This document shows, in pieces, positions 16,996-36,827 of a DNA stretch of 64,000 nucleotides (position 1 is the first letter of the stretch; each line of letters begins with the position of its first letter). Source of the stretch: a plasmid; sequence record NZ_CP119397.1; one strand, given 5' to 3'. The notes below the pieces were generated by a model. It was not told where the DNA came from and did not search any database. It saw nothing but the letters and a program-made list of their open reading frames with translations. Position numbers and translations under genes: made by a program.

Positions 16996-17178
16996 AGTGC
17001 TACGGCGTCCTGGTTGTTAACCACAAGCGCGGACAATATCGGCTCCGGGCGGTGGTGGCAAGCGTGGGGAAAGCAGGCCCGCCGCCGCGGCGCCCTGTGC
17101 CATGTGGCACATCACCCGAATTTCTCGTTGCGCGTATGATACCCCGCAATTTATCCACATAGATTGCAAGGGATTCTT

Positions 17179-17676: not shown

Positions 17677-17679
17677 CCT

Positions 17680-19832: not shown

Positions 19833-19911
19833 ATCCCGTCTGCCTGTATAGATTTCTGTGCAGGCAGAGTAATGGCAGGCAAGCCCTGCCGATATGAATA
19901 GGGCTGTACAA

Positions 19912-20379
19912 ATGACAGTAAACGTAGACGCCTTAATAAATAGCCTGGGGAAATCTTATAACGATATGCTTGAGGCTGAACTTATTCCCTATAAAACCCC
20001 CCCTACCGGATTTTCAGGTGATCCTGAGATCAGTCTGGATATGGCTAAAGAGGGGGTTTATCTGTCATTTAAGCGGGATGGGCGGATTTTACAGACTGTG
20101 ATCCTGAGCATTCAACATGACAAAGTAAGTAATTGGGTTTTCCCAAATGACCTGCCTTCCCCCCTACAAAAGATTATGTCAAGGCCATGGGTTCATGAAC
20201 ACATTGGTAAACCATTAAGAAGCGTACCTCCGAAAGTTATTATGAGACGAGCTTTTGGCTGGATGGATTTATACGAAGCTAAAGGTTGGGCAATCCCGAT
20301 CAGTATGCAAATCAGCTATGACGTGATGGATAATGTCAGAGCCGTCGCCTTTATGCCCACCGCCGAATTACGCTGGTAG
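19912..20379 (+). CDS. orphan immunity-protein paralog 2
   Basis: About 45% identity by eye to 19365..19832 and ~65% to 21198..21665. Start taken at MTVNVDALINS (the ORF-track start lies inside a duplicated CPCC-gene 3' fragment). Confidence 0.5.
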   Translation: MTVNVDALINSLGKSYNDMLEAELIPYKTPPTGFSGDPEISLDMAKEGVYLSFKRDGRILQTVILSIQHDKVSNWVFPNDLPSPLQKIMSRPWVHEHIGKPLRSVPPKVIMRRAFGWMDLYEAKGWAIPISMQISYDVMDNVRAVAFMPTAELRW

Positions 20380-20551
20380 CCTTATCACTTTTACCACCCC
20401 GCCCGCGCATGCCACTGCGCGGGCAGTGATGTGATTCAGTATCGTGTCGGTGAATTGTAATTAACACTTGAGCAACTTGATAAAAATGATGATATATTTT
20501 CACCACAATAAAACTCTATTAACTTAACTATAACGCGCTCAAAATATTTTT

Positions 20552-20731
20552 ATGGGAAAATTACACCTACGCCCTTGCTGTGGCGATAAAGAAATATATG
20601 AACCTGGATCATGTGAAATATGTGAGCGTTGTGGCTGGGAGGATGATCCAGCGCAGAGTAAGCATCCCGATACTTTACGGGGAGCGAACCATATGACGCT
20701 TAATGAAGCCAGGCAAGCCCTGCCGATATGA
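20552..20731 (+). CDS. CPCC-family cysteine-rich small protein
   Basis: 59 aa: MGKLHLRPCCGDKEIYEPGSCEICERCGWEDDPAQ... This matches the CPCC...C-x2-C-x-WEDD pattern of Cys_rich_CPCC proteins, which are often found in toxin/immunity loci. It falls below the length cutoff of the supplied ORF track. Confidence 0.5.
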   Translation: MGKLHLRPCCGDKEIYEPGSCEICERCGWEDDPAQSKHPDTLRGANHMTLNEARQALPI

Positions 20732-20886
20732 TAATCACCACATGGCAGCAAATATTCCGTTATTTTATATTTATTTACATACAAAGCCGCGGGAAACGAG
20801 TAGCCAGATGGAAAAATACCACGTGAAAATTTATGAATGGGATTCTCAACATGGTACTGTTGAAATATGAGAAAGGTTGAAAAGTA

Positions 20887-21138
20887 ATGATTTCTTATTC
20901 TATTGAGATATTTGATAAATGTAGTGAAGAGTTAATTAAAGAAATAAAAATACCTAATTATCAACTAGATCTAGTGATTGAGATCATGGGATTTGACACT
21001 ATAGAAAAAGAGTCCTTTATTAAGGGGGTGGGGGGTTTCAATGTTACAAAGGAACAGGCTGTCAAATTGGAATCCTTATTAATGGTAGAATTCCATTCAG
21101 AAAAATACATTATTCAGATTGCAGGTGGCGAGATATAA
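20887..21138 (+). CDS. hypothetical small protein (AT-rich, foreign-looking)
   Basis: 83-aa ORF with GAAAGG RBS, in a ~30% GC stretch between the CPCC gene and immunity paralog 3. Confidence 0.3.
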   Translation: MISYSIEIFDKCSEELIKEIKIPNYQLDLVIEIMGFDTIEKESFIKGVGGFNVTKEQAVKLESLLMVEFHSEKYIIQIAGGEI

Positions 21139-21197
21139 AAGCATTTATTTTCCCATTATTTTATGGATGGAATAAACAGTAAAATGGAATTTTATAA

Positions 21198-21665
21198 ATG
21201 ACCGTAAATGTTGATGCAATGATTAATAGCTTAGGAAAGAGTTACATTGAGCTTGTTGATTCAGGATTGATTGTGTACAAATCCCCGCCGAAAGGAGCGT
21301 CAGGCTCTCCTGTGCTTAGTCTGGAGATGGCATTAGAGGGAATTTTCTTATCCTTTAAACGTGATGGACGAATTTTAAAATCGATAACACTTCGGCTCCA
21401 ACATAATGAAAGTCATAATTGGGCTTTTCCTAATCAACTACCGCTTCCTTTACAAAATAATATGTCCCGCAGTTGGGTACATGAAAATATTGGGTCGCCA
21501 TTAAGAAGTGCGCCTCCCTACATTGTGATGAAACAGGCTTTTGGCTGGGCAGATCTGTATGAATCAAAAGGACGTCCTATACCCACCAATATGCAAATTA
21601 ACTATGACGTGATGGATAATGTAAGATCGGTCACCTTTATGCCCACGTCCGAACTTCGCTGGTAG
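21198..21665 (+). CDS. orphan immunity-protein paralog 3
   Basis: 155 aa: MTVNVDAMINSLGKSY...MPTSELRW. Clear paralog of the two genes above. Confidence 0.5.
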   Translation: MTVNVDAMINSLGKSYIELVDSGLIVYKSPPKGASGSPVLSLEMALEGIFLSFKRDGRILKSITLRLQHNESHNWAFPNQLPLPLQNNMSRSWVHENIGSPLRSAPPYIVMKQAFGWADLYESKGRPIPTNMQINYDVMDNVRSVTFMPTSELRW

Positions 21666-21682
21666 CGTCCCACACTTTACCC

Positions 21683-22739
21683 GGCTTTGTTGAATAAATC
21701 AGATTTCGGGTAAGTCTCCCCCGTAGCGGGTTGTGTTTTCAGGCAATACGCACGCTTTCAGGTATACCTGCTTTCGTCATTTTGTTCAGCGCTCGTACCA
21801 GGGCCATAGCCTCCGCAACCTGACCATCGTAGTCACGCAGCGTCAGTGAACCCCCGAACAGCTGTTTTACCCGGTACATCGCCGTTTCCGCTATCGAGCG
21901 ACGGTTGTAATCTGTTGTCCATTTCCACCGCGCATTACTCCCGGTCATTCGCTGATTAGCCACTGCACGGTTACGGTCTGCATATTCACCGGGCCAGTAA
22001 CCCGCACCTTTTCGGGGAGGGATAAGCGCGCTGATTTTCTTACGCCGCAGTTCATCGTGACATAGCCGGGTATCGTAAGCGCCATCGGCGGCGGCTGACC
22101 TGATTTTCCGGTGGGTTTGCCGGATTAACCCGGGGAAGGCCTCTGAGTCCGTAACGTTGTTCAGCGACAGGTCAGCGCAGATGATTTCATGTGTTTTACT
22201 GTCAACGGCGAGATGCAGCTTACGCCAGATACGGCGGCGTTCCTGGCCATGCTTTTTGACTTTCCACTCGCCTTCACCGAAGACCTTCAGCCCGGTGGAA
22301 TCAATTACCAGGTGTGCGATTTCACCCCGGGTGGGCGTTTTGAAACTGACATTAACCGACTTTGCCCGCCTGCTGACACAGCTGTAATCCGGGCAGCGTA
22401 GCGGAACGTTCATCAGAGAAAAAATGGAATCAATAAAGCCCTGCGCAGCCCGCAGGGTCAGCCTGAATACGCGTTTAATGACCAGCACAGTAGTGATGGC
22501 AAGGTCAGAATAGCGCTGAGGTCTGCCTCGTGAAGAAGGTGTTGCTGACTCATACCAGGCCTGAATAGCTTCATCATCCAGCCAGAAAGTTATGGAGCCA
22601 CGGTTGATGAGGGCTTTATTGTAGGTGGGCCAGTTGGTGATTTTGAACTTTTGCTTTGCCACGGAACGGTCTGCGTTGTCGGGAAGATACGTGATCTGAT
22701 CCTTCAACTCAGCAAAAGTTCGATTTATTCAACAAAGCC
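21683..22739 (-). mobile_element. IS903 (IS5 family), complete, 1057 bp
   Basis: 18-bp terminal inverted repeats ggctttgttgaataaatc at both ends. Flanked by the 9-bp direct repeat ACTTTACCC (21674..21682 and 22740..22748), a target-site duplication. The transposase is intact. Confidence 0.85.
21739..22707 (-). CDS. tnp: IS903 transposase (IS5 family, DDE)
   Basis: N-terminus MKDQITYLPDNADRSVAKQKFKITNWPTYNKALINRGS matches the IS903 transposase as recalled. Confidence 0.9.
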   Translation of the reverse strand: MKDQITYLPDNADRSVAKQKFKITNWPTYNKALINRGSITFWLDDEAIQAWYESATPSSRGRPQRYSDLAITTVLVIKRVFRLTLRAAQGFIDSIFSLMNVPLRCPDYSCVSRRAKSVNVSFKTPTRGEIAHLVIDSTGLKVFGEGEWKVKKHGQERRRIWRKLHLAVDSKTHEIICADLSLNNVTDSEAFPGLIRQTHRKIRSAAADGAYDTRLCHDELRRKKISALIPPRKGAGYWPGEYADRNRAVANQRMTGSNARWKWTTDYNRRSIAETAMYRVKQLFGGSLTLRDYDGQVAEAMALVRALNKMTKAGIPESVRIA

Positions 22740-22785
22740 ACTTTACCCCGACCCGCGCAGCTTATTGCGCGGGCGGGGTATGACA

Positions 22786-23667
22786 TCACTTTATGCTTTC
22801 ACCTGATGAATCTCGGCAATATAGCCGCCGGGGGAATTCGACCATCGCGGCGGGCGCGGTGGTATCGGCAGAACGCCAGAGGATTTTCGCATGGCTGGCC
22901 AGCGCCTTGTCCAGGGTTTGCTGGAGATCGGTGACACCGTAACCGGTGCGCTCATGGCCGAACGGGTAAGGCAGGTGGCCGTCGGTCACGAAAATCTTGA
23001 CCTTGCCGAAGGTGGAGGAGAGGTCCACTTCACGCACGGTGCCGCTGGTTTCGCCGATCAGGGCGGCGCTGACCTGCTGGTCACGGTCAACTTTGCCTTG
23101 TGAAAACTGCTGGTAGCTGCGGATGAAATCCTTCACCCGGTAGCGTGACAGGTAGACGCGGTTCTCCGGCACGCTGCTCAGCGGCGCGTAATCCGGCGCT
23201 TTGGTGTGCCAGTAAAGCTGCATATTCACGCCGCCCGGCCACTGGATCACCGCATCGCGGCCAATCGGGTCCGGGAACGGCTCGACCAGCACATCCGCCC
23301 CTGCCGCTTTCGCCTGCGCCACGGCCGCATCCATATCCCGCACCAGAAAACCGTTGCGCTCATCGCCGAACGGGTAAGGTGTTGGGGTCTGGAAATCAAA
23401 CACCGAGAAGCTGCCGACCGGTGTCAGCACCAGTTGGGAGAGCGTCTCGCTGGGGGTAGGGGTGACGTCGGCGGTGATGCGTTGGGTAGCCTTGCCGCCA
23501 AAGGTGTGCAGCAGGCTGTTGACGAAATCATCCATTTTGCCTGGCTGCACGTAAACATGGGTGGTGTCATATTGGGCACCCACCGCCAGGCTCTGGGCGG
23601 CCCAGGCCGCCGGGCACGCGCTCAGGGAGAGCGCCAAAGCGAGCACGCCAAACCGGGTTTTATTCAT
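22786..23667 (-). CDS. secreted two-repeat VOC/glyoxalase-like protein
   Basis: Signal peptide MNKTRFGVLALALSLSACPAAWA. Internal duplication (YPFGDERNGF / YPFGHERTGY). AGGAGAAGG RBS. Confidence 0.45.
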   Translation of the reverse strand: MNKTRFGVLALALSLSACPAAWAAQSLAVGAQYDTTHVYVQPGKMDDFVNSLLHTFGGKATQRITADVTPTPSETLSQLVLTPVGSFSVFDFQTPTPYPFGDERNGFLVRDMDAAVAQAKAAGADVLVEPFPDPIGRDAVIQWPGGVNMQLYWHTKAPDYAPLSSVPENRVYLSRYRVKDFIRSYQQFSQGKVDRDQQVSAALIGETSGTVREVDLSSTFGKVKIFVTDGHLPYPFGHERTGYGVTDLQQTLDKALASHAKILWRSADTTAPAAMVEFPRRLYCRDSSGESIK

Positions 23668-24589: not shown

Positions 24590-24917
24590 GGCGATCTCCT
24601 GAACGTAGTGGATGAAAGGGTCCGGATAAAACAGGGTAAATACACGCCGGAACAGGCGTTGCCTCAGCGGCACCCTATCCGGCGTGATCAACATACTCAG
24701 CCGCCCCCGCCGGGCGTGTTGGCGCCCCGGCAGGATGTGGCCGGATTATGGTCAGCGGGGCAACGCAGCGTCTAGTTATACGTAGGGATAGGTATACCTA
24801 AAGATAATAGTGCCGCCGCTGCGCCCGCCCTACCATGCACCCTGAGAGTTATGACTGCGGCCGCGCCCTTTTGCCGGCTGCCTTTTCCTTGTTACACCAA
24901 CCTCAATGGGTACCGCT

Positions 24918-25604
24918 ATGACCAACACGAAACTTGAAGTCCTGACGCCGGACAATTGCCAGATGATCTTCATCGACCAGCAGCCGCAAATGGCCTTTGG
25001 GGTACAGTCCATCGACCGCCAGGTGCTGAAAAACAACACCGTTGCGCTGGCAAAAGCGGCGAAAGTCTTCAATATCCCGACCATCATCACCACGGTGGAA
25101 ACCGAGAGCTTCTCCGGCCATACCTACCCTGAACTGCTGGACGTGTTCCCGACCCACGACATCCTGGAGCGCACCTCCATGAACTCCTGGGATGACCAGA
25201 AAGTGCGTGATGCGCTGGCCGCGACCGGCAAGAAAAAAGTGGTGGTCTCCGGCCTGTGGACGGAAGTGTGCAACAACAGCTTCGCCCTGTGCGCGATGCT
25301 GGAAGGCGGCTATGAGATCTACATGGTGGCGGACGCCTCCGGCGGCACCACCAAAGAGGCGCATGATTTCGCCATGCAGCGCATGATCCAGGCGGGCGTG
25401 ATCCCGGTGACCTGGCAGCAGGTGATGCTGGAGTGGCAGCGTGACTGGGCGCACAAAGAGACTTACACCGCGGTGATGGACATCGTCCGGGAGCATTCCG
25501 GTGCCTACGGCATGGGCGTGGATTACGCCTACACCATGGTGCACAAAGCCGAAGCCCGCCTGCCGGGCGACCACCGCACGCTGTCGCCGGTACCGGCCCG
25601 CTAA
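24918..25604 (+). CDS. isochorismatase-family hydrolase (YcaC-like)
   Basis: MTNTKLEVLTPDNCQMIFIDQQ aligns with the YcaC N-terminus. Catalytic Cys in GLWTEVC. Confidence 0.75.
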   Translation: MTNTKLEVLTPDNCQMIFIDQQPQMAFGVQSIDRQVLKNNTVALAKAAKVFNIPTIITTVETESFSGHTYPELLDVFPTHDILERTSMNSWDDQKVRDALAATGKKKVVVSGLWTEVCNNSFALCAMLEGGYEIYMVADASGGTTKEAHDFAMQRMIQAGVIPVTWQQVMLEWQRDWAHKETYTAVMDIVREHSGAYGMGVDYAYTMVHKAEARLPGDHRTLSPVPAR

Positions 25605-25661
25605 GCCGCCTGCGCCGGCCGGTCACCCGCCCGGCCGGCCCTTTCCCACGGGAGATGTTCC

Positions 25662-25928
25662 ATGAGCACCTGGTTGCTTTCTTTTGGGGCCGGTATCCTT
25701 ATCGGCTTGCTTTACGCGCTGCTGAAGGTGCGGTCACCGGCGCCCCCGGCGATAGCGCTGACCGGCCTGCTCGGCATGGTGTTGGGCGGTGTGCTGGCGA
25801 CCCAGGGCAGCGCCCTGCTCGCACAAAACAGTGCACAGGCCAGCCACCCTGTTGCACAGCGCGCCGTTTCCCAACACGCCCCGGCGGCCGCGCCTGCGGC
25901 GGTCTCCCTTTCGCACCCGGAGGCATGA
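25662..25928 (+). CDS. XapX-domain (DUF1427) small membrane protein
   Basis: GxLxGLxYAxLxVxSPAPPxxALxGLLGM core. Commonly sits next to isochorismatase genes. Confidence 0.5.
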   Translation: MSTWLLSFGAGILIGLLYALLKVRSPAPPAIALTGLLGMVLGGVLATQGSALLAQNSAQASHPVAQRAVSQHAPAAAPAAVSLSHPEA

Positions 25929-26200
25929 TGCTGAAAGCTTATCTCGTTTCTCTGCTGACCGGCCTGTTGGCAGGGATGGTGTACGTCGCGATTGCCGTGC
26001 CGTCGCCCGCACCGCCGGTAGCGGCCTTGCTGGGGCTGTTCGGGATGCTGGTCGGGGAGCAGATTATTCCGGCGATCCGGCGGCTTATTAACCGCCAGCC
26101 ACTGACGATGGCCTGGTTCCGGCATGAGTGCGTGCCTAAAATCAGCGGCACCCCGCCGCCGGAAACGGGCACTGAACCGCCTGCTGCCCCGCCGCGTTAG
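25927..26200 (+). CDS. XapX-domain (DUF1427) small membrane protein, tandem copy
   Basis: MMLKAYLVSLLTGLLAGMVYVAIAVPSPAPPVAALLGLFGM. Overlaps the previous stop. Confidence 0.5.
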
Positions 26201-26211
26201 AGGACACCGGG

Positions 26212-26589
26212 ATGATGCCGCCGTGCATTGCCGTTATCGATGATGAACCCTCCGTCCGCCGCGGGCTGAGCAATCTGCTCCAGTCGGAGGGGTATAGTGT
26301 GGCGGTGTTTGCGTCAGCGGAAGCCTTTCTGCACGACGCCGGCACAGCGGCCAGCATCCTGGCGATTATTGATGTCAAACTCACGGGGATGAGCGGGTTT
26401 GAGCTGTTTGACCATCTGGCGCGTTACCACGCCCCGCCGCCGGTGATTTTTATCTCCGGTCACGGTGATGAACAGATGGAGCGCGCGGCCCTGGACCTTG
26501 GGGCCGTTGCTTTTTTACGTAAACCTATCAATATTGATACACTTTTAGAACATATCCAGCGCGTGCTTGACCGGCCTGACCGGAAATAA
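26212..26589 (+). CDS. single-domain response regulator (receiver only, FixJ/NarL-type REC)
   Basis: IAVIDDEP, phospho-acceptor Asp in IIDVKLTGMSG, FISGHGD. No output domain. GAGGA RBS. Confidence 0.75.
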   Translation: MMPPCIAVIDDEPSVRRGLSNLLQSEGYSVAVFASAEAFLHDAGTAASILAIIDVKLTGMSGFELFDHLARYHAPPPVIFISGHGDEQMERAALDLGAVAFLRKPINIDTLLEHIQRVLDRPDRK

Positions 26590-26649
26590 GCCAAGCGGCG
26601 CGGTTGACGGTGTGCCGCCCTACCGGGCACGGTATGCCGGAGGAACCCG

Positions 26650-29600
26650 ATGAGCAACAACGCCCCCCAGTCCGCCTGGCCCGCCCCGGATGACCCGGCT
26701 GACGAACCGGCCTTTACGCTGGATGAGCGCGTGGTGTTTATGCCGCTGGCCCAGGATGGCTGCCTCACCTGGTCATGGTGCCGGCACCCGGTCTGCGGCC
26801 GCGAATACATTCTGGCCACCGCCGCCGGGGAAGAGGCGGAGCCGCAGGCGACGCTGCTGCTGAAAAATGAGTTCGCCCTGCGCGGCCACCTCGCGCCGGA
26901 CTGGGCGGTGATCCCGGTGGCCACGGCGCTGTATCACGGCCGCTACGCGCTGCTCTATCGCCCTTTCCCGTTTGAAACCCTGACGCGCATCACCGGCACC
27001 CCGGCCGGGGACATGGCAGTCTTCCTGGATCTGGCGCTGAACCTCTGCGCGCCCTTGTTGCAGATGCACCAGCACGGCCTTATCCACGGCGACATCAAAC
27101 CCGGCAACCTGTTTATCAATAATGACGGCAGTTGCCGCCTCGGCGGCTTCGGGCTGGCATCGGGCGCGACCGGCACCGGCGCACGCACCACCGTCTCGGC
27201 AGCGGGCGGGACGCTTGCCTATATGTCACCGGAACATGCCGCCCGTACCCGGCGCGCCGTGGACCACCGCAGCGATCTCTACAGCCTCGGCATCGTGCTG
27301 TATGAGCTGCTGACCGGCAGCCTGCCGTTTGACCTGACCGAGGGCGGGCAGGCGGAGTGGGTGCATCACCATATCGCCTCCGAGCCGCGCCCGCCGCATC
27401 AGGTACGCCCCGGCACGCCGGATATCCTCTCGTCGATTATTCTGCGGCTGCTGGCCAAATCCCCGGAAAACCGTTACCAGACCACCGAAGGGCTGATGGC
27501 CGATCTCCGCCGCTGCCGCGCCACCGTCTCCCCGTCCGGCAGCCTTATGCCCTTTCCGCTGGGTTTGCAGGATCGCGCGGCCGCCCTGCCGCTCTCTGAC
27601 GCGCTGTTCACCGGCCATCCGCAGAGCCAGGCGCTGCTTGAGGCCTTCAGCGGGGTAAACCACCGCGGCACGCAGGCGCTGGTGGTCATCAGCGGGCCGT
27701 CCGGAATCGGGAAATCGTCACTGATCGCCTCGGCGCTGAGTGCGCTGCAACACCAGCCGGTGCTGCTGGCGGTGAGCCGTGTGGATCAGTACCAACCGGC
27801 GCTGCCCTATGCGGTGCTGACGTCCGCCTTCCGGTCACTGGCGCTGCATATTCTCGGGCTGCCGGCGGCGGAGATTGCCCGCTGGAAAGCGCGGCTCAGC
27901 CAGACACTCGGCAGTTATGCCGGGCTGGCGGTGAACCTGGTGCCGGAGCTGGGCCTGTTGCTGGCGCAACCCTCGTGGATCCCGCCGGATACGCTGTCGA
28001 TTGATGCCCGTGCGCGTTTCAACCACATGGTGCTCTGCCTGATCAAAGCGTTCGCCACGCCCTGCTGCCCGCTGGTGCTGATGATTGATGACATCCACTG
28101 GGTGGATGCGGCCAGCCTGCAACTGCTGGAATATGTGGTGAGCAACAGCACCACACTGCCGCTGCTGATGGTGGTGGCGTACCGCGACGACACCCACACC
28201 CACGGCGGGCCGCCGCTGGCCGGGTTACGGGCTGCCGCGGCGAAGGTCACTGAGATCCGGCCGGAACCGATGACGGTAAAGGGCGTCACGCGCTGGCTGG
28301 CAGACGCCTTCCAGACACGGGTAGCGGGCATTGCCTCCCTGGCGGCGCTGGTGCACGAAAAAACCGGCGGCAACCCGCTGTTCGTGCAGCAATTTGTGAA
28401 ACGCATCGTGGATGACGGGCTGGTGACCCACCATACCCCGCATAAAAAATGGCATTACGATCTGCCGGCCATCCGCGCGCGCCATTACACCGAGAATGTC
28501 GCCGGGCTGGTGCTGCAACAACTGGCGCAGATGCCGCCCGACACGCGGAAATTGCTCGGCAGCCTGGCCTGCCTGGGCAATGCCGGGAATCTGGCGGTGC
28601 TCACCCGCGTGCTGGGAACCGGCATCACTGAAATGTGCCGGGTGCTGCACCCGGCCGTGGCGGCCCAGTTGATCACGTTGTCCGTCAATGAGTACGCATT
28701 TACCCATAACCGGGTGCAGGAAGCCGCGTTTGCGCTGCTGGACCCGGCGGAAAAGAGCCACCTGCATCTGGCCACGGCCAGCCTGCTGGCGGAGATGTCG
28801 CAACAGGCGACCGGCAACGACACGCTGTTCCGGGCGGTTCACCATGTGGCATCGGCGATTGAGGCGATTGAACCGCTGCCGCAGCGCCGGATGTTCCGCG
28901 AACTGAGCCTGCTGGCGGCCCAGCGGGCCAAACGCACCGGCGATTCGCTCTCGGCGCTGGGTTACCTGCGCACCGCCCGCGCGCTGGCCGACAAAAATGC
29001 GCCGGACGATCACCAGCTCACCTTCACGCTGGATCTGGAAGAGGCGGAGTGCGAGTTTCTGCTCGGCAACCTCGCCACCGCGGCAAGGCTTTGTGCGCAA
29101 CTGGCGGGCCGGCCCGGCGGGCTGGCGGAAAAAGCGGTGGCTGCCTGCCTGCTGGCGGAGATCCACATGCGGCAATCGCACCGGCAACAGGCGCTGGAGA
29201 CGGCCATCGCCTGGCTGTCGGTGTTCGGCATTTCGCTCAGCCGCTACCCGGACGTGCGCGAATGCGACGACGCCCATGAGGCAATCGTCGCACGGGTAGG
29301 CGACGATCCGGCAGCGGTGTTCAAGGCCCTGCCGCGCATGGATGACCGGGATACCGAAGCGGTCATGAACCTGCTCGCCAGCGCCGGGATTTTCGCCAGT
29401 TTCTGCTGCCCGCGCCTGCATTTCCTGATCCTCTGCCGGATGCTGCACCTGACGCTCGACCACGGCATGACCGGGGCCGGGGCGACGGCGCTGGCCTGGT
29501 TCGGCGTGTTGATCGGCCACCGCTACGAGACGTACCAGCGTGGTTTCCGCTATGGCCTGCTGGCGCGGGAGCTGGTCAGCCGCCACGGCTACCTTAATGC

Positions 29601-32229
29601 CGAAGCGCGCATCCTGCTGCCGCTCGACCAGCTCAGCGTCTGGACGCAGCCGCTCAGTTTCACCGTCGAATGCGCCAAAGCCTGCTTTACGGCGGGCGTT
29701 ACCCACGGCGATCTGACCTCTGCCTGTTTCGCCACCTGCCATCAGGTGATCAATTTCCTGACGCGCGGCGACCACCTTGACGCCGTGCTGACCAGCATCG
29801 ACCGGGGGCTGGCGTTTGTGCGCAAGGCGCATTTCCAGGATGTGGAAACCATTCTGCTGATCCAACGGCATCTGGTGGAGCACCTGCGCGACCCGAACGC
29901 CGCCTCCCCCGCCGGGGCCGGTTTCCTGCCCGACACCCTGCTGCCGGGCACGCGTGACCCGATGCCGACGCTGATGTTCTGGTACTGGCTCTACAAGGCG
30001 CTGGCGCACTTCGCGGCCGGGGAGTTCGCCCAGGCCGCCGATGACCTCAGCACCGCCGGCACCCTGAGCTGGTCAGCGCCGGGGCATATCCACCTGCTGG
30101 ATTACCACCTGTTCAGCATTCTTTCCCTGACCCAGCAGCTGACGCCGGAGAGCATCACCCCGGCACACCGCCGCTGGCTGCAACCGCACTACCGCAAACT
30201 CGCGCTGTGGGCGCAGCTGAACCCCGGCACCTTCGCCGACAAAGAGGCGCTGGTGTATGCCGAGATGGCGCGGCTTGATGCGCACTACAGCCTGGCGATG
30301 AAGCTGTATGAGAAGGCGATCCGCCTCTCCCGCGAGGCCGCCTTTGATCACATCAACGGGCTGGCGCACGAACTGGCCGGGCGTTTTGTACAGGCACGCA
30401 GCTACCCCACGGCGGCTGATGCCCACTTCCGGGGCGCGATGGCGGCCTGGGGACGTTGCGGTGCGCAGGCCAGGGTGCGGCAGCTTGAGCGGCAGTACCC
30501 GCATCTGGTGGTGCCGCGGCACACCTCGCCTTACGACACCATCGCCTTTGCCCAGAATGAGGAGATCCGTGACTTGCAAAGCGTGATTAACGCCTCGCGC
30601 GCACTCTCTGAAGAGATCAACCTCGGGCGGTTGATCCAGATTCTGATGACCATGCTGCTGGAGCGCGCCGGGGCGCAGCGCGGGCTGCTGATCCGCGTGG
30701 CCGGGAACCACCTGCCGGAGATTGAGGCCTGTGCTGACACCACCTCCGGCGGTGTGCAGGTACAGATTGTGAAAGCGGTGCCGGGGGCGACCGATCTGCC
30801 GCTGTCGGTGCTTTCTGCGGTGATCCGCACCGGGCAGGAGATCCGCACCGGCAAGCCGGGCGAGTTCAGCCCGTTCAGCCAGGACCCCTATCTGGTCACG
30901 TCCGGCGCGGCAGTGATGTGCGTGCCGATGTTCAAACAGGCCCGGCTGGTGGGCGTGCTCTATCTGGAGAACCGGCTGATGCCGGAGGTGTTTACCGCGG
31001 AGCATTCAAAAATCATCGGCATTCTGGCGGCGCAGGCGGCGGTGTCGCTGGAAACCGCCCGGCTCTATGCGGAGCTGCTGGAGGAGAACATCCAGCGCCG
31101 CCGGGTCGAGAAAGAGCTGCGTGCCAGCCAGACGTCACTGATGCTGGGCGAGCAGATCAGCCACACCGGCACCTGGCGCTGGGATGTGCAGCAGGATCTG
31201 ATGGTGATTTCCGACGAGTACGGGCGCATTTTAGGGCTGCCGCCGAGCCAGAAAAGCATTTCGATGGCGGATTTCCTGACACGGGTTCATGTGGATGACC
31301 ACCCCCGCATCAGCACACTGGTGACGGAAAGCGTGCGTGACCATGTCACGATGCGCGCCGAGTTCCGCATTATCCGCGAAGATGGCGCTACCCGTTACCT
31401 GCTGGGGATCGGCAACCCGGTGCAGGCCGGGGCGGAGGTCAATGAGTATTTCGGCACCATCACCGACATCACCGCCCACCGGCAGGCGGAAGACGCCGCA
31501 CGGGTGGCGCAGGCCGATCTGGCGCGGGTGGCGCGCGCCACCACTGTCGGCCAGCTGACGGCCTCCATCGCCCATGAGATCAACCAGCCGCTGATGTCGA
31601 TTGTCTCCAACGCCGGGGCGAGCCTGCGCTGGCTGGGCCGTGACCCGGCGCAACTGGGCAACGCCCGCGCCGGGCTGGAGGAGATCATCACTGAAGGGCA
31701 GCGGGCCGGGGAAATCATCCGCAGTTTGCAGGCGCTGACGCGTAACCAGCCGCCCTCTTTCGCGCGCGTTGATCTGCACCAGATCGCCCACCACATCATG
31801 ATGCTGTCGCGCAGCGAACTGGAGCGCCAGCGGGTGGCCGTGGAGTACCAGTTACAGGCCGAACAGCCCGGTATCTGGAGTGACAGTGTGCAGATCCAGC
31901 AGGTATTGCTGAATCTGGTGGCCAACGCCATCGACGCGATGGCCGACATCACCGACCGCCCGCGCCTGCTGACGCTCTCCTCCAGCAACCCGGCACCGGG
32001 TTACCTGCGTTTTTGCATTGCGGATACCGGCATCGGCCTCGACCCGGCGGTGATGGCGCGGGTGTTTGACTCGTTCTACACCACCAAAAAACAGGGGATG
32101 GGCATGGGCCTGACCATCAGCCACGCGATCATCGAACGCCACCGCGGCAAACTCTCGGCAGAAGCCCGCCGCCCCTACGGCAGTTGCTTTACCTTTGTGT
32201 TGCCGACAGAGGGGGAACACCCTCAATGA
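26650..32229 (+). CDS. giant signalling protein: Ser/Thr-kinase-like domain, AAA/STAND ATPase, helical (TPR/MalT-like) repeats, GAF, PAS, HisKA, HATPase_c
   Basis: Kinase-like region ~26770..27520 (HGDIKPGN, GGFGLAS, SPE, DLYSLGIVLYELLTG). Walker A ISGPSGIGKS ~27690, Walker B LVLMIDDIHW ~28080. GAF ~30590..31080. PAS ~31120..31470. H-box SIAHEINQPL ~31560. N/G1/G2 boxes NLVANAIDAM / DTGIGLD / GMGMGL to the end. GGAGG RBS. Confidence 0.85.
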   Translation: MSNNAPQSAWPAPDDPADEPAFTLDERVVFMPLAQDGCLTWSWCRHPVCGREYILATAAGEEAEPQATLLLKNEFALRGHLAPDWAVIPVATALYHGRYALLYRPFPFETLTRITGTPAGDMAVFLDLALNLCAPLLQMHQHGLIHGDIKPGNLFINNDGSCRLGGFGLASGATGTGARTTVSAAGGTLAYMSPEHAARTRRAVDHRSDLYSLGIVLYELLTGSLPFDLTEGGQAEWVHHHIASEPRPPHQVRPGTPDILSSIILRLLAKSPENRYQTTEGLMADLRRCRATVSPSGSLMPFPLGLQDRAAALPLSDALFTGHPQSQALLEAFSGVNHRGTQALVVISGPSGIGKSSLIASALSALQHQPVLLAVSRVDQYQPALPYAVLTSAFRSLALHILGLPAAEIARWKARLSQTLGSYAGLAVNLVPELGLLLAQPSWIPPDTLSIDARARFNHMVLCLIKAFATPCCPLVLMIDDIHWVDAASLQLLEYVVSNSTTLPLLMVVAYRDDTHTHGGPPLAGLRAAAAKVTEIRPEPMTVKGVTRWLADAFQTRVAGIASLAALVHEKTGGNPLFVQQFVKRIVDDGLVTHHTPHKKWHYDLPAIRARHYTENVAGLVLQQLAQMPPDTRKLLGSLACLGNAGNLAVLTRVLGTGITEMCRVLHPAVAAQLITLSVNEYAFTHNRVQEAAFALLDPAEKSHLHLATASLLAEMSQQATGNDTLFRAVHHVASAIEAIEPLPQRRMFRELSLLAAQRAKRTGDSLSALGYLRTARALADKNAPDDHQLTFTLDLEEAECEFLLGNLATAARLCAQLAGRPGGLAEKAVAACLLAEIHMRQSHRQQALETAIAWLSVFGISLSRYPDVRECDDAHEAIVARVGDDPAAVFKALPRMDDRDTEAVMNLLASAGIFASFCCPRLHFLILCRMLHLTLDHGMTGAGATALAWFGVLIGHRYETYQRGFRYGLLARELVSRHGYLNAEARILLPLDQLSVWTQPLSFTVECAKACFTAGVTHGDLTSACFATCHQVINFLTRGDHLDAVLTSIDRGLAFVRKAHFQDVETILLIQRHLVEHLRDPNAASPAGAGFLPDTLLPGTRDPMPTLMFWYWLYKALAHFAAGEFAQAADDLSTAGTLSWSAPGHIHLLDYHLFSILSLTQQLTPESITPAHRRWLQPHYRKLALWAQLNPGTFADKEALVYAEMARLDAHYSLAMKLYEKAIRLSREAAFDHINGLAHELAGRFVQARSYPTAADAHFRGAMAAWGRCGAQARVRQLERQYPHLVVPRHTSPYDTIAFAQNEEIRDLQSVINASRALSEEINLGRLIQILMTMLLERAGAQRGLLIRVAGNHLPEIEACADTTSGGVQVQIVKAVPGATDLPLSVLSAVIRTGQEIRTGKPGEFSPFSQDPYLVTSGAAVMCVPMFKQARLVGVLYLENRLMPEVFTAEHSKIIGILAAQAAVSLETARLYAELLEENIQRRRVEKELRASQTSLMLGEQISHTGTWRWDVQQDLMVISDEYGRILGLPPSQKSISMADFLTRVHVDDHPRISTLVTESVRDHVTMRAEFRIIREDGATRYLLGIGNPVQAGAEVNEYFGTITDITAHRQAEDAARVAQADLARVARATTVGQLTASIAHEINQPLMSIVSNAGASLRWLGRDPAQLGNARAGLEEIITEGQRAGEIIRSLQALTRNQPPSFARVDLHQIAHHIMMLSRSELERQRVAVEYQLQAEQPGIWSDSVQIQQVLLNLVANAIDAMADITDRPRLLTLSSSNPAPGYLRFCIADTGIGLDPAVMARVFDSFYTTKKQGMGMGLTISHAIIERHRGKLSAEARRPYGSCFTFVLPTEGEHPQ

Positions 32230-32480
32230 AAATGGCACACAACGCCGCCGTTTTCCCGCCCCTGGCAATAACCGGCAACTTTTCTAACGCGCACCCCCAG
32301 CGATAATGTTGGGGGTCAGAGAAGGCGTGGCCCCCTACCTTAAATAATCAGTATCACTGGCAGGTGCTGCCTATAATGCATTAAATCAACAGGCAGAGTA
32401 TTTTCTTAGGGATTTTACAGGCACCGATCTTGTTGAATGTTCTTATCTGATTCTGGCTTGGAACGATGTATAATCATCCG

Positions 32481-33032
32481 TCAGATATAAGTTATCTCTT
32501 TTTTATTATACACCACTGAATTATCAGGAATATCCTTATTGACGAACGTCATCGCGCCGATGACCACGTTGCTGCCGATCCGTAAATTCTCACCAATTAT
32601 GCAGCTGTTTGCCCCAACCTCCACGTTATCACCAATATAGATTTTCCCCTCCTGATCATTTTTTCTGACACCGATAGTGACATTCTGTTTTATATAAAAA
32701 TCATCTCCAATGATGCAACAGTCAGCTATCACAATGCCCACATAATGTGAAATGCTGAGGCCTACGCCGATTTTGGCACCTAATTTAATGTCTAAACCGT
32801 ACTTATTCCGTAGATTACGATTTACCCTGACAGCATATTTTTTCATTTTACCATTAAGGTAAAGGTAGTTAGCCACACGCCACCAAAAATGAAAACGCCG
32901 ATCCGGGCACTTAATGGCTTTATAAATTGTTTTTAACCAGGAAAAATTTTTATCAGTCCTCATGACTTCAGCCCGAAGACAAGATTTTAGATGTTCAATA
33001 CTGTTGTGTTGACGTTCCAAATTAAAACCCAA
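32481..33032 (-). CDS. hexapeptide-repeat acyltransferase (WcaF/CysE/Maa-like)
   Basis: Left-handed beta-helix repeats (IGDNVEVGANSCIIG, IGSNVVIGAMTFV). Sits in a ~32% GC island (32230..33450) that contrasts with the ~65% GC flanks. Confidence 0.6.
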   Translation of the reverse strand: MGFNLERQHNSIEHLKSCLRAEVMRTDKNFSWLKTIYKAIKCPDRRFHFWWRVANYLYLNGKMKKYAVRVNRNLRNKYGLDIKLGAKIGVGLSISHYVGIVIADCCIIGDDFYIKQNVTIGVRKNDQEGKIYIGDNVEVGANSCIIGENLRIGSNVVIGAMTFVNKDIPDNSVVYNKKEITYI

Positions 33033-33456
33033 GAAGCAGAAGATTTAGTTATTTGCTCATCCTGTTTTAAGAATAAAGCCCCCTGTTTTTAAACTGCTAA
33101 TTTAAAACCACTTAATCGCTCATGGGCTAAATAACCCTTCAAGAGCATGATACTTAAAATACGCTTAACTTTTTATAAAAAATTGATTGATATCAACAAA
33201 ATGCATTAAAACCTTCTATAGCAGTACTCGAGCAAGAAAATTTCTATATTCAATTTTAAAGCTAATTATGTTGATGAAATAATTTTCAGGTGCTTTAGTA
33301 GAAAGCTGTCTTATTAAGATTTTTAGCAGGTTTCGGCATTGGATAGACCTTACCGGGATGATAAGTGCCATTATTTTATCCTTATCCAGCCTGGAACAAT
33401 AAAATATCAGCACGATGAAGAGGGGAAGTACGCCGCCCTAGGGCGGCGGGCGTGGC

Positions 33457-33792
33457 TCAGGCGGCCGGGTTACCCGGCAATGCGGCGAGGTGGCGGCGCA
33501 GTTCGCCGTGGGCCATCGCCACGGCGGGGGAATCCTGCAAGGCGGCGAGGTATTTCTGGTGGAACGCGCTGGGATTGTCCGCGCCGGGCGTCAGTTGCTG
33601 TTCGATGCGGCGTTGGTAATCCTGCACCGTGCTCTGTTCCACCCCCTGCTCTTTATCATCCAGCCGCTCATCCAGCCCCACCAGGATCTCAGAAATCTGC
33701 TGGAGCCAGGCGAATTGCGGGTGGCTGGTCAGCAGTTGCAACTGGTCAAACGCGCTGCCTGCCGGGCCAAACTGGGCCAGTTCACTCTCCAC
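33457..33792 (-). CDS. hypothetical protein (GTG start), downstream of LuxR-type regulator
   Basis: 111-codon high-GC ORF with host-like codon usage. No in-frame ATG, so a GTG start is needed. No recognisable motif. Confidence 0.3.
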   Translation of the reverse strand: MESELAQFGPAGSAFDQLQLLTSHPQFAWLQQISEILVGLDERLDDKEQGVEQSTVQDYQRRIEQQLTPGADNPSAFHQKYLAALQDSPAVAMAHGELRRHLAALPGNPAA

Positions 33793-33897
33793 CAGCGTTT
33801 TATGCAGCCTGCGCAGCGAGGGTTGACATCGTTCTCAGCTGCGCGCGCGGGTCAGGCGGGGTGTGGGTCGTCAAGGGCTTCTCCTTTGAGAACAGAA

Positions 33898-34518
33898 TTA
33901 ACGGCTTTGGGATTTCAGGATATTCAGGCGCTCCGCAGCCCGGACTAAATCCGCCAGCGAGCGCGCCTGCATTTTTTCCATCACACGGCGTTTATGCACT
34001 TTGGCGGTGATTTCACTGACGCCCAGCGCATTGGCGATCTGTTTATTCAGTAACCCGCCGATCGCCAGCTCCAGCACTTCGCACTCGCGCGGCGTCAGGG
34101 TCTGATGCCGCTGCCGCAGCGCCAGGTGCTCGCAGGAGAGCGTGAGGTTCTTCTCCGCCAACTGCAAGGCATCGGCCACCGCGTTCAACAGCTGGTCGGC
34201 CATCACCGGTTTGGTCAAAAACTCATGCGCCCCGGCTTTCATCGCCTTGACGGACATCGGAATGGTGCCGAAGCCGGTCAGGAAAATTATCGGGATGGCG
34301 TGGCCGTTGTTATGCAGCGTTTCGGCCACGTCAAAGCCATTGGCGACCGGCATATTCATATCAAGAATCAGGCAACTGGGTACCGGGCTGAAGGGGTGCG
34401 CCAGAAACGCCTCAGCAGAGGCGAAATCCGCCACCGTATACGCTGCTGACTCCAGCAAGCGGACAAGCGAACGCCTGACCGCCTCATCATCGTCCACCAC
34501 ATACACTATCTGATCCAT
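33898..34518 (-). CDS. LuxR/FixJ-family response regulator (REC + HTH)
   Basis: VYVVDDDEAVRRSL, D in LILDMNMP, K in LTKP. C-terminal LTPRECEVLELAIGGLLNKQIANALGVSEITAKVHKRRVMEKM is a LuxR-type HTH. AGGA RBS before MDQIVYV. Confidence 0.8.
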   Translation of the reverse strand: MDQIVYVVDDDEAVRRSLVRLLESAAYTVADFASAEAFLAHPFSPVPSCLILDMNMPVANGFDVAETLHNNGHAIPIIFLTGFGTIPMSVKAMKAGAHEFLTKPVMADQLLNAVADALQLAEKNLTLSCEHLALRQRHQTLTPRECEVLELAIGGLLNKQIANALGVSEITAKVHKRRVMEKMQARSLADLVRAAERLNILKSQSR

Positions 34519-34772
34519 CGTTAAGTCCTGTTTTTGCCGTGGGTCAGCCACACGGGCCGCCCAGCCAGAATTACCGCGATCATGAAGTCAGAACCACCAG
34601 ATTGATTTAGTAGGATATTATGACTTTATAATAATGAGTATGGATATAATGAGCGAATACTTTATTTCGTGAAGAATTAAGCAAAATGCCATAAGGAAAC
34701 CGGCCAGGTCTCCTTTTCAGCGGTTAACCTGACCGGATGGTCTCTTCCAACCTGCGCTGCTTGGGGCCTGCG

Positions 34773-35762
34773 TCAGCTTTTCAGCTGCGGCGGGACGGGC
34801 GGCGTGCCGTGGGTATGGAAGGTGTCGATGGTTTTCAGCCCCCAGGCCTGCCCTTTTTTCCGGTCAGCCTCTGTCCAGACCACGGTTTGCCAGTCCGGTG
34901 CCAGGATCAGCCGGGCGCCGGAGTTTGCCAGCTCCACGCGGTTGCCCGCCGGCTCCCAGACATACAGGAAAAAGGTGCCCTGAATCGCGTGTTTATGCGG
35001 GCCGGTCTCAATGTGGATGCCGTTTTCCAGAAAGATATCGGCGGCGCGCAGAATGTCTTCACGGCAGTCTGTGGCGTAGGTGACGTGGTGCAGGCGGCCG
35101 TTACCGCCGCCATGCTCTTCGGTACAGGCCAGATCATAAGTTTTATTGTTGACGGTAAACCAGCACCCGCCGATACGGCCGTTATCCAGTTGGATCATCT
35201 CTGTCACCCGCGAGCCGAGGCGGGTTTCCATGAATTTTTTAAATTCCGTCACATCGGCGGCCAGCAGATTAAGATGATCCAGGCGGCGCGGGCAGGCACC
35301 ACGGCTATGGTAGCGCTGCGCCAGATTTTTCAGCGACGGGCGTTCACCTGCTTCGGCCTGGTAGCGCACGGTATCGTAGTAAATCTCAAAAATGTGCCCA
35401 AACGGATCGGCAAAGCGGAAAGCGCGGCCGTGCCCCGGATCGTCATCCACCCAGCCGATCACCTCATAGCCACTGGCTTCAATCGCTGCGACACGGCGCA
35501 TCAGGGCGGCCTCAGACGAGGCGCGGTACGCGATATGCCCGACGCCGGTGGTGTGGTGGCGCGTGAGTTTCAGCGTATGGAATTCGTAATCATCCCAGGC
35601 GCGCAACCACGCATGGTGCTCTGTCCGGGCCGACACCGTCAGGCCATACACATTGACAAAGAAATCGAGGCTCTCTTCAAATTTGTCAGTGTAAAGCTCG
35701 ACGTGGGCCAGATGGGCAATATCAAAACAGGGTTCCGGCAGGGAATTTGTCATTGTCATCAT
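34773..35762 (-). CDS. extradiol ring-cleavage dioxygenase (catechol 2,3-dioxygenase family, two VOC modules)
   Basis: 329 aa. Twin VOC domains, and His/Glu ligand context (HVELYT, GVGHIAY, HHVTY, E near the C-terminus) typical of type I extradiol dioxygenases. Confidence 0.65.
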   Translation of the reverse strand: MMTMTNSLPEPCFDIAHLAHVELYTDKFEESLDFFVNVYGLTVSARTEHHAWLRAWDDYEFHTLKLTRHHTTGVGHIAYRASSEAALMRRVAAIEASGYEVIGWVDDDPGHGRAFRFADPFGHIFEIYYDTVRYQAEAGERPSLKNLAQRYHSRGACPRRLDHLNLLAADVTEFKKFMETRLGSRVTEMIQLDNGRIGGCWFTVNNKTYDLACTEEHGGGNGRLHHVTYATDCREDILRAADIFLENGIHIETGPHKHAIQGTFFLYVWEPAGNRVELANSGARLILAPDWQTVVWTEADRKKGQAWGLKTIDTFHTHGTPPVPPQLKS

Positions 35763-35924
35763 TCTCGTGGTGTAGGCATACAGCGTTAGACATTATGAAA
35801 AAGCAGGGTAACCGCCCGATGCCGGACGGGGCAGACGGTTTGACCTTATCGCGGTATGCGTTTTATTTATACTGTGATCGCGGTAACAGCACCGGCCTGC
35901 CGGACAACAGGCCAGTATGCGCCC

Positions 35925-36827
35925 TTACTCCTCCCCCTGCGCCTTCAGCCGCGCCTCTAAAAATGACAGGAAAACACGGGTAACCTCGCTGCGCTGGCGG
36001 TGCTGGGAGTAGAGCGCGTTCAGGCTCAGCGGCGCGGGGTGGTGCGCGGCCAGCACCGGCACCAGGTCGCCGCTTTTCAGCGCCGGGCCGACGATAAACG
36101 CCGGCAGCAGCACCAGCCCCAGCCCGGCGATCGCCGCGTCACGCAGCACTTCGCCGTTGTTGCTGATGATCGGCCCCTGCACATCGAGCATTTTGCGCTT
36201 GCCGTCCTGCACCAGTTCCCAGCCGGTCTGCCCTTCCCGTCCGTAACGCAGGCAGGCGTGCGCCAGCAGGTCCTCCGGCGTCTGCGGCTCCCCGGCACGC
36301 CTGAGGTAGGCGGGGCTGGCGCAGACCACCCGGCTGAGCCGGCCGAGGCGGCGGGCGATCAGCGTCGAGTCCGCCAGCGCGCCGATGCGGATGGCGATGT
36401 CAAACCCCTCACCAATCAGGTCCACCTGCCTGTCCCCCAGCTCCACCTGGAACCGCACCGCCGGGTGCAGGCTCAGGAATTCCGCAATCAGCGGCGAGAG
36501 GTGGCTCATGCCAAATGACATCGGCATGCTGATGCGGAACGTGCCGTGCAGCGCCTGGCGGCGTTCGCTGACGGCCTGTTCCGCCTCGTGGATGTCATCC
36601 AGAATGCGCTGCGCATGCTGGCCGAACACCTGCCCCGCCTCGGTCACCGAAAGCTTGCGGGTGTTGCGGATCAGCAGCCGCGCGCCCAGTGAGTCCTCCA
36701 GCGCCGCCATCCGGCGGCTGACGTACTGCTTTGACAGCAACAGCTGATCCGCTGCCGCGGTAAAGCTGCCGGCGCGGATCACGGTGATAAAAATACGAAG
36801 GTCTTCTATCTGCACATTGTCCACCAT
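35925..36827 (-). CDS. LysR-family transcriptional regulator
   Basis: HTH IEDLRIFITVIRAGSFTAAADQLLLSKQYVSRRMAALE. Divergent from the pirin gene. Confidence 0.8.
   Translation of the reverse strand: MVDNVQIEDLRIFITVIRAGSFTAAADQLLLSKQYVSRRMAALEDSLGARLLIRNTRKLSVTEAGQVFGQHAQRILDDIHEAEQAVSERRQALHGTFRISMPMSFGMSHLSPLIAEFLSLHPAVRFQVELGDRQVDLIGEGFDIAIRIGALADSTLIARRLGRLSRVVCASPAYLRRAGEPQTPEDLLAHACLRYGREGQTGWELVQDGKRKMLDVQGPIISNNGEVLRDAAIAGLGLVLLPAFIVGPALKSGDLVPVLAAHHPAPLSLNALYSQHRQRSEVTRVFLSFLEARLKAQGEE

Follow-up and report, generated by a model that had tools for sequence, protein, structure and literature searches.

A probable conserved FixL/FixJ-like cassette with an accessory receiver, and a separate moron-like islet, on a Chimaeribacter arupi megaplasmid

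Single-domain response regulators can act as phosphate sinks, as CheY1 of Sinorhizobium does, or as relay intermediates, as Spo0F does. FixT of Caulobacter is a single-domain receiver with a 4-Cys Fe-S-cluster motif that directly inhibits the autophosphorylation of FixL (PMC7078487). The cyanobacterial HstK-type dual kinases join a Ser/Thr kinase, GAF, PAS and a histidine kinase in one polypeptide (PMC1262709). Here we consider a locus that resembles each of these in part. It lies in a 64,000-nucleotide stretch of plasmid sequence NZ_CP119397.1 (the window), which is part of a Chimaeribacter arupi megaplasmid. It holds a receiver-only (REC-only) protein, a giant sensor kinase, a LuxR-type regulator and, between the last two, a block low in guanine plus cytosine (GC) with an acetyltransferase gene. 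An earlier reading made from the letters of the window (the sequence-only reading) had listed all of these, and all were found, with small corrections to coordinates and GC. The kinds are already known. The signalling genes make up a two-component system that has an accessory receiver, and the low-GC block is an accessory islet like a moron. We argue, at a probability of about 70%, that the locus is a conserved, branched FixL/FixJ-like cassette plus a separate and recent 1.2-kb moron-like islet found in a minority of C. arupi. The main features are these.

26212..26589, plus strand: REC-only response regulator, 125 amino acids (aa), FixJ-type receiver (PF00072, E 2e-26)
26650..32229, plus strand: giant sensor kinase, 1859 aa, with kinase-like, STAND NTPase, GAF-PAS and histidine kinase parts (Pfam)
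32218..33412, no strand: strain-specific islet; homology to insert-free strains restarts at 33427 (BLAST)
32481..33032, minus strand: hexapeptide O-acetyltransferase, CysE/WcaB/EpsC-like (PF00132; PHROG 2154, E 7e-56, full length)
33898..34518 or 34551, minus strand: FixJ/NarL (LuxR)-type regulator, REC plus GerE (PF00072 and PF00196), convergent to the kinase

The argument for a cassette starts from its neighbourhood in other genomes. An alignment of 18 kinase homologues was used to fetch 79 loci, one genome per species, and homologues of the neighbouring genes were located in all of them. The Enterobacterales kinases are 52-90% identical to the one in the window. Gene order in this group is isochorismatase-family hydrolase, DUF1427/XapX, REC-only, kinase. 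The REC-only gene ends 48-130 bp before the kinase in every Enterobacterales locus that has its upstream flank (60 nt in the window, where the gene starts 11 nt past the XapX stop). In 34 of the 37 Enterobacterales loci the LuxR-type regulator lies convergently past the kinase. The gap between these two is 0-110 bp in 27 loci, 191 bp in one and 430-600 bp in six, where a homologue of a 138-aa gene sits between them. The REC-only and LuxR-type genes are also side by side, next to a kinase homologue, in 16 distant loci, including Shewanella, Bradyrhizobium, Burkholderia, Bordetella, Pseudomonas, Nannocystis and Acidobacteriota. Since the linkage holds in both sets of loci, we argue that the three-component unit is real and ancestral. 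The sequence-only reading had treated the three genes as one module and had named response regulators unlinked to the kinase in relatives as a result that would undo it. We looked for this in the relatives' loci, and the genes there form a conserved unit.

Pfam divides the kinase into Pkinase (C-lobe), AAA_16, GAF, PAS_3, HisKA (PF00512) and HATPase_c (PF02518), and its scan of the 1859 aa finds no Response_reg or Hpt domain. Across the 18 aligned homologues there is no variation in the H-box, the P-loop or the N, G1, F and G2 boxes. In the transmitter the invariant residues are H1642, N1755/N1759, D1792-G1794-G1796, F1806/F1809 and G1816-G1818-G1820. The AAA_16 domain (PF13191, E 1.5e-23) has the Walker A motif GPSGIGKSS, with G349, G352, G354, K355 and S356 invariant in the same homologues, and this is what a STAND P-loop NTPase should have. 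The Pkinase match is another matter. It is confined to profile positions 105-257, which are the C-lobe. Within this kinase-like domain (residues 1-300; 26650..27600) HGD is kept and GFG replaces DFG, with F167 and G168 invariant among the 18. No Gly-rich loop GxGxxG or VAIK Lys is recognisable in residues 30-75. An active Hanks-type Ser/Thr kinase is recognised by its Gly-loop, VAIK Lys, HRD Asp and DFG Asp, and the domain fails this test. These traits are shared by all 18 homologues. Since the match covers the C-lobe only and GFG stands in for DFG, the domain is probably a pseudokinase that serves as a sensor or scaffold. The protein is like the HstK-type dual kinases in joining a Hanks-type domain to GAF, PAS, HisKA and HATPase. 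It is unlike them in that probable pseudokinase, and in its added AAA_16 STAND NTPase and long helical region. Its family is also proteobacterial, with a fixed REC-only/LuxR partner set. The kinase is 100% identical to a C. arupi plasmid protein (P0242) on a 250,769-bp record, where the acetyltransferase has the next accession. PADLOC matches of the giant protein (PD-T4-6, mad6) were set aside as generic kinase-domain matches, which are not evidence for a defence system.

Both receivers keep the residues of a phospho-acceptor site. In the REC-only protein D10, D11, D54 and K104 are present in 39 of 39 orthologues, and position 82 is Ser in 38 and Thr in one. In the LuxR-type regulator D21, the phospho-acceptor D64, T92 and K114 are present in 39 of 39, and D20 and D22 in 38. 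Two sequence marks of a two-component system are thus there: the HisKA/HATPase boxes and, in both receivers, the acidic pocket, acceptor Asp, Thr/Ser and Lys. The REC-only protein stands alone across the loci, where the longest open reading frame (ORF) at the orthologous position encodes 129-175 aa; the sole exception is 260 aa in L010. The nearest described relatives are FixL and FixJ. The best NCBIfam match of the transmitter is FixL (168.8 bits against an equivalogue cut-off of 850), that of the REC-only protein is the FixJ receiver (95.9 against 255), and that of the regulator is FixJ as well (177.8 against the same cut-off of 255). Neither the kinase nor either receiver reaches equivalogue status, and the scores are far below the cut-offs. 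The locus is like FixL-FixJ with Caulobacter FixT in that the transmitter resembles FixL, the receivers resemble FixJ, the output is REC plus a LuxR-type helix-turn-helix, and there is an extra receiver-only protein. It is unlike them in its sensor. FixL is a haem-PAS protein, and here the sensor is a cytoplasmic protein of 1859 aa with kinase-like, STAND, GAF and PAS parts.

We argue that the best-supported mode of signalling is a branched FixL/FixJ-like two-component system. It would not be a His-Asp-His-Asp relay, because there is no histidine phosphotransfer (HPt) or hybrid receiver domain. The sequence-only reading had offered a phosphorelay or a phosphate sink, and the first of these is not supported: the kinase lacks both a receiver and an HPt domain, and no HPt protein is encoded at the locus. 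Hpt families are also missing from the Pfam annotations of neighbour genes called in related Chimaeribacter loci. In the branched system the H-box histidine of the cytoplasmic sensor kinase would be autophosphorylated, and the kinase would hand its phosphate to two FixJ-like receivers. The LuxR-type regulator would be the transcriptional output. The co-transcribed REC-only protein would compete for phosphate or feed back on the kinase. A branching of one kinase to two receivers, with the REC-only protein as sink or modulator, is plausible from the sequences. We infer phosphotransfer to both receivers from their conserved linkage, and the sink or modulator role is suggested by analogy. The REC-only protein is like the phosphate sinks of the CheY1 type in that it is a receiver standing alone, has an intact acceptor site and is encoded beside a kinase that has an output regulator. 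It is unlike them in that the cassette is not a chemotaxis system, and it could equally be an allosteric modulator. By analogy, the closest characterised counterpart for a modulator is Caulobacter FixT.

FixT suggests a scenario where the REC-only protein binds the kinase and blocks its autophosphorylation but drains no phosphate. The transmitter and receivers are FixL/FixJ-like, FixT directly inhibits the autophosphorylation of FixL, and the REC-only gene is co-transcribed with the kinase. However, the REC-only protein has one Cys (C5) and not the functional 4-Cys Fe-S motif of FixT. In 39 orthologues its acceptor residues are either invariant or replaced conservatively, which argues that phosphorylation matters. 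We consider pure feedback inhibition unlikely, though it has the best claim after branching with a sink or modulator. A true His-Asp-His-Asp phosphorelay, in which the REC-only protein would be the intermediate that carries phosphate on to the LuxR-type regulator, does much worse. The acceptor site is intact, and single-domain receivers such as Spo0F do act in this way elsewhere. But a relay needs an HPt step, and neither an HPt domain nor an HPt-like protein was found in the kinase or the conserved neighbourhood. Both receivers are of the same FixJ type, which points to parallel rather than serial transfer. We regard a relay as very improbable, and prefer the branched system.

The second half of our reading is that the low-GC block is not part of this cassette. 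Between about 32250 and 33430 the GC profile drops to 0.30-0.43, from a level of 0.62-0.69. GC is 38.5% over 32218..33426, 36.3% over 32341..33426 and 32.5% in the non-coding part (33033..33426). The reference values are 59.6% for the whole window, 65.8% for the kinase gene and about 60-66% for the surroundings of the islet. Only one other region of the window is equally low (19.0-21.8 kb). The sequence-only reading was right that the block is low in GC, but its figure of about 32% describes the non-coding part only; over the 32230..33450 that it had marked out the value is 39.2%. It was also right that the block is foreign and strain-specific, and insert-free layouts were found in C. arupi 2016-Iso3 and in C. 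coloradensis. Iso3 (L082) is 99.5% identical to the window up to 32217 and 99.1% identical from 33427, and between these points an unrelated 135 bp takes the place of 1209 bp. In C. coloradensis the stops of the kinase and of the 138-aa gene are only 51 bp apart.

On the left the junction is sharp. It falls inside the final codons of the kinase gene, which the sequence-only reading had missed. The Iso3 kinase ends ...EGEGK* and the one in the window ends ...EGEHPQ*. Positions 32218..32229 (HPQ*) come from the islet, so that the native last two codons and stop (GK*) have been replaced by three codons and a stop. This makes the islet visible in protein sequences. A 90% cluster has 10 distinct kinase sequences; eight end in GEGK with no islet tail, and two end in GEHPQ. 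Apart from its tail, one GEGK allele matches the kinase in the window exactly, and therefore the insertion is recent. The same islet, 99.7% identical, is also present on an independent metagenome contig (L001), and this excludes an assembly artefact. The parts of the islet and its right edge are as follows.

32228..32325, plus strand: structured left arm of the islet, 58.5% GC (fold -36.2 kcal/mol, z -3.1)
33033..33412, minus strand: AT-rich non-coding sequence upstream of the acetyltransferase, 32.5% GC
33413..33430, no strand: hypervariable right junction, containing AGAGGGGAAG (33419..33428)
33431..33448, no strand: native GC-rich hairpin cgccgccctagggcggcg between the convergent genes

This hairpin is the palindrome of the sequence-only reading, where it bounded the insert at 33434..33452. 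It exists, 3-4 nt further left, but it is not a boundary. Iso3 has a hairpin at the homologous position (ACGCCGCC-cggc-GGCGGCGT, 9-bp stem), and so does C. coloradensis (CGCCGC-ctcacc-GCGGCG, 7-bp stem). This implies the palindrome is native and not the end of the insert. In the window it has a 7-bp GC stem (-15.5 to -17.6 kcal/mol, z about -1.1). It has no T-run on either strand, and a terminator scan does not call it as an intrinsic terminator. AGAGGGGAAG is an imperfect 9-10-nt direct repeat of AGAGGGGGAA (32208..32217) at the left junction. This repeat, AGAGGGG(G)AA, hints at microhomology-mediated illegitimate recombination, though it is not conserved in L001. That contig matches the window to 33412, is completely different for about 18 nt, and then shares the CTAG-loop hairpin. 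Differences from Iso3 cluster at 33429-33494 and the alignment is clean beyond. Inside the islet, the left arm is the new 3' untranslated region (UTR) of the kinase and a possible terminator region for the acetyltransferase; there is a weak minus-strand terminator-like site at 32246..32234. The AT-rich segment presumably holds the acetyltransferase's own promoter. Rfam gave no RNA family in 31900..34000, and PHROG gave no match for a 65-aa ORF in 33033..33412.

The acetyltransferase has 183 aa if it starts at TTG and 160 aa if it starts at the ATG at 32963. Its family is PHROG 2154; 64 phage records match, and homologues occur in temperate phages and prophages. Neighbourhoods were read in two phage records and one prophage locus, and in all of them the gene is beside tail-fibre or integrase genes. 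In Citrobacter phage phiNP the relative (sat, 57% identity) adjoins hicAB and tail-fibre genes, in P2-like phages it adjoins integrase and Abi genes, and in an Erwinia amylovora prophage it adjoins Acyl_transf_3 and tail-fibre genes. Phage morons of this sort (phiNP sat, PHROG 2154) are of the same family and are likewise small low-GC units convergent with a neighbour. The islet has two features expected of a moron, an accessory family of temperate phages and a deviating composition (38.5% against 59.6% and 65.8%). It is unlike them in that no prophage, integrase or tail genes are adjacent; it is by itself in a signalling locus on a plasmid. Its flanks are the kinase and regulator genes, and the flanking genes examined (22.8-36.9 kb) yielded no phage genes, so the islet is not within a prophage.

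Within the family pN is 0.05-0.15 against a pS of 0.74-0.86. This means strong purifying selection, with synonymous sites saturated. Iso3 has a second copy of the gene elsewhere (L084 6001..6486, contig PJZI01000005) with 91% aa and 79% nt identity and 49% GC, and it sits in an island with phage integrase, CdiI-like and bacterial RNase-A-like genes. Similarity to the Chimaeribacter, Nissabacter and other copies ends at the ends of the coding sequence. Because the synonymous sites are saturated, the copies are independent acquisitions of a functional, constrained gene. As to what it does, all NCBIfam scores are below cut-off (EpsC 85.4 against 150, CysE 81.4 against 210.65, WcaB 69.8 against 196). 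The protein aligns to CysE residues ~110-240, and its PDB matches are limited to the beta-helix domain. It shares the left-handed beta-helix catalytic domain with CysE, WcaB and EpsC, and it is unlike CysE in having no SATase N-terminal domain. An Asp and a His that align with the CysE catalytic pair are present in its sequence. By analogy with phage-borne relatives beside tail-fibre genes, it most likely acetylates a surface polysaccharide or other small acceptor.

We argue that a 1.2-kb low-GC islet entered a short convergent intergenic space, bringing the acetyltransferase and its AT-rich upstream region in the manner of a moron. Of the kinase gene it replaced the last two codons, the stop and the 3' UTR, and it spared both the native hairpin and the transcription unit of the regulator. 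The polarity could be reversed if the block were ancestral and had been deleted in the insert-free strains and species. Iso3 carries an unrelated 135-bp filler, which means the site has changed more than once, and there is a short repeat at both ends of the block. However, in 28 Enterobacterales loci the regulator is 0-191 bp from the kinase stop, and the acetyltransferase is in none of them. The block is about 25 GC points below its flanks and its gene is of a phage family. An insert-free kinase allele is otherwise identical, and synonymous sites are saturated against the other Chimaeribacter copy. Deletion of an ancestral block is hardly credible, so the polarity of our insertion scenario stands.

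The effect of the insertion on the module is a separate question. It may have split an ancestral operon, or a regulatory 3' UTR joining kinase to regulator, and so altered signalling in this strain. The sequence-only reading had raised both, and the UTR part holds: the 3' UTR has been replaced along with the last two kinase codons, and the kinase transcript now enters a structured stretch of normal GC with a convergent acetyltransferase gene added. The distance from the kinase stop to the native hairpin has grown by ~1.2 kb. Transcription of the acetyltransferase runs towards the 3' end of the kinase, so antisense transcripts are possible, and the neighbouring 138-aa gene is frameshifted here. 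The operon part fails. Kinase and regulator are convergent in 34 of 34 linked loci, no operon spans the site, and therefore none is split by the islet. The replaced residues lie past HATPase_c and vary between species (GK, EA, GG, HPQ), and the frameshift is 390 bp from the insert with no obvious connection to it. A disruption that changes signalling is improbable, if less so than a deletion. Nor does it seem that the acetyltransferase was recruited as an output of the module, for example by read-through from the transcript of the regulator and the 138-aa gene. It is oriented like the regulator's transcription unit, and the hairpin in between has no U-tract. But it is in just 2 of 10 alleles, has unrelated gene contexts in other genomes, and is separated from the hairpin by a 380-bp AT-rich spacer. 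We give recruitment very little credence, and the acetyltransferase is not part of the signalling module.

Several points weigh against the joint reading of cassette plus islet. The LuxR-type regulator is absent beside the kinase in C. californicus, in Dryocola and at a C. arupi paralogue that is 53% identical, and therefore the pairing of kinase and regulator is not obligatory. Linkage alone is no proof that both receivers are substrates of the kinase. A literature search yielded no biochemistry for any member of the kinase family; it found nothing on this family, nor on DUF1427 with isochorismatase. On the side of the islet, promoter and terminator scans give no excess over shuffles, and it is composition and layout that suggest a self-contained transcription unit. 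Its insertion is not explained by any recombinase or clear target-site duplication. We saw no terminal inverted repeats, recombinase ORF or attC-like site at the islet, and no second copy within the 64-kb window. No donor with DNA similarity beyond the coding sequence was found in phages, plasmids, viral contigs or metagenomes. Blastn of the 1209-bp block gave nothing in phages and one 67% coding-sequence match in plasmids, viral contigs gave protein relatives of 44-54% only, and the left-junction 24-mer is absent from the JGI metagenomes.

Upstream of the REC-only gene the cassette has further parts.

24773..24808, plus strand: operator/promoter, a conserved motif cluster of TAGKTATAC repeats (24773, 24789/24792) followed by a -10-like AGATAAT
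24906..25604, plus strand: isochorismatase-family (YcaC-like) hydrolase, the first gene of the operon (PF00857, E 9e-28)
25662..25928 and 25928..26200, plus strand: two tandem XapX/DUF1427 small genes (Pfam and NCBIfam)

The plus-strand operon would consist of the operator/promoter, the isochorismatase-family hydrolase, the two XapX-like proteins, the REC-only protein and the kinase. A single 181-aa DUF1427 gene at 25655..26200 was rejected, since the gene calls in the 99.5%-identical L082 show two tandem genes. Two to four copies of TAGKTATAC plus AGATAAT are present in 35 of 40 loci (L002-L042, L061, L075 and L081), at 75-230 bp before the start of the isochorismatase gene, and two of the five negatives lie on contigs that end early. 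The positive loci include Shewanella and Herbaspirillum. Elsewhere the cluster has only ~12 matches in ~680 kb. In C. coloradensis (L056 5513..5561 against 24849..26195 of the window) there are no isochorismatase or XapX genes, and the operator is directly before the REC-only gene. This implies it is the promoter/operator of the REC/kinase operon. Reverse-oriented copies are on the regulator side in three loci (L011, L016, L023), and the L016 cluster is ~90 bp past the kinase stop. The LuxR-type regulator may bind at this motif. A possible second operator, a lone TATTTATAC at 35864, was dropped as a single weak match.

L016 is the paralogous locus of C. arupi (2016-Iso3, contig PJZI01000017). 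Its kinase is the 53%-identical one, and it has a 91%-identical isochorismatase and a REC-only gene but no LuxR-type regulator.

The hydrolase scores 133 bits against YcaC in NCBIfam, under the cut-off of 310. It is 87-92% identical across Enterobacterales genera whose kinases share just 52-66%. It is still 78-81% identical in Cupriavidus, Shewanella and Pseudomonas, and the adjacent kinase is only 32-66% identical. By these identities its conservation appears to be near the level of ribosomal proteins, which is unusually strong for an enzyme without an assigned role.

Two more genes near the regulator complete the picture.

33457..33874, minus strand: frameshifted homologue of a conserved 138-aa protein
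34773..35762, minus strand: catechol 2,3-dioxygenase-like (extradiol dioxygenase) gene

The first of these survives as a 111-aa ORF (33457..33792) between insert and regulator, which the sequence-only reading had passed over. Compared with C. arupi Iso3 it has one G too many, at 33818, which shifts its frame; it may be a pseudogene, or the G a sequencing error. Homologues lie between kinase and regulator in Pseudescherichia, Franconibacter and C. coloradensis. The protein has no match in Pfam, NCBIfam, PHROG or PDB. The dioxygenase gene is inside a 1.24-kb segment upstream of the regulator (34692..35930) that is in C. arupi and absent from C. coloradensis, the third indel of the region; a plus-strand ORF at 34737..35789 was rejected in its favour. 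A second variable, partly low-GC island (17069..22797) goes down to 30% GC, and C. californicus has ~180 bp in its place. Its cargo is a PAAR/pyocin-S toxin, three DUF6392 genes (immunity-array-like) and a DDE transposase (21739..22707, minus strand).

The insert itself is routine accessory-gene flux. If the acetyltransferase modifies surface polysaccharide, it would be relevant to phage susceptibility or serotype. What is new may be the conserved cassette that was hit by the islet and not the islet, though we hold this only tentatively. Just as tentative is the idea of a novel, widely distributed sensory regulon that combines a STAND/pseudokinase-FixL-type fusion, a fixed REC-only/LuxR pair, a highly conserved isochorismatase and a dedicated candidate TAGKTATAC operator. 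If it is true, the fusion would be a case of ligand-driven oligomerisation controlling a histidine kinase, and the operator, as the binding site of the regulator, would imply positive autoregulation of the kinase operon. The cassette is a conserved six-gene system in many Enterobacterales, including Enterobacter, Klebsiella, Cronobacter, Pantoea and Serratia. Several of its parts can be tested, namely the operator, the two receivers and an enzyme that may be an output. Near-isogenic C. arupi plasmids with and without a foreign gene between convergent signalling genes are a natural experiment. Such pairs could show how an islet at a two-component locus affects termination, antisense transcription and silencing of the H-NS type.

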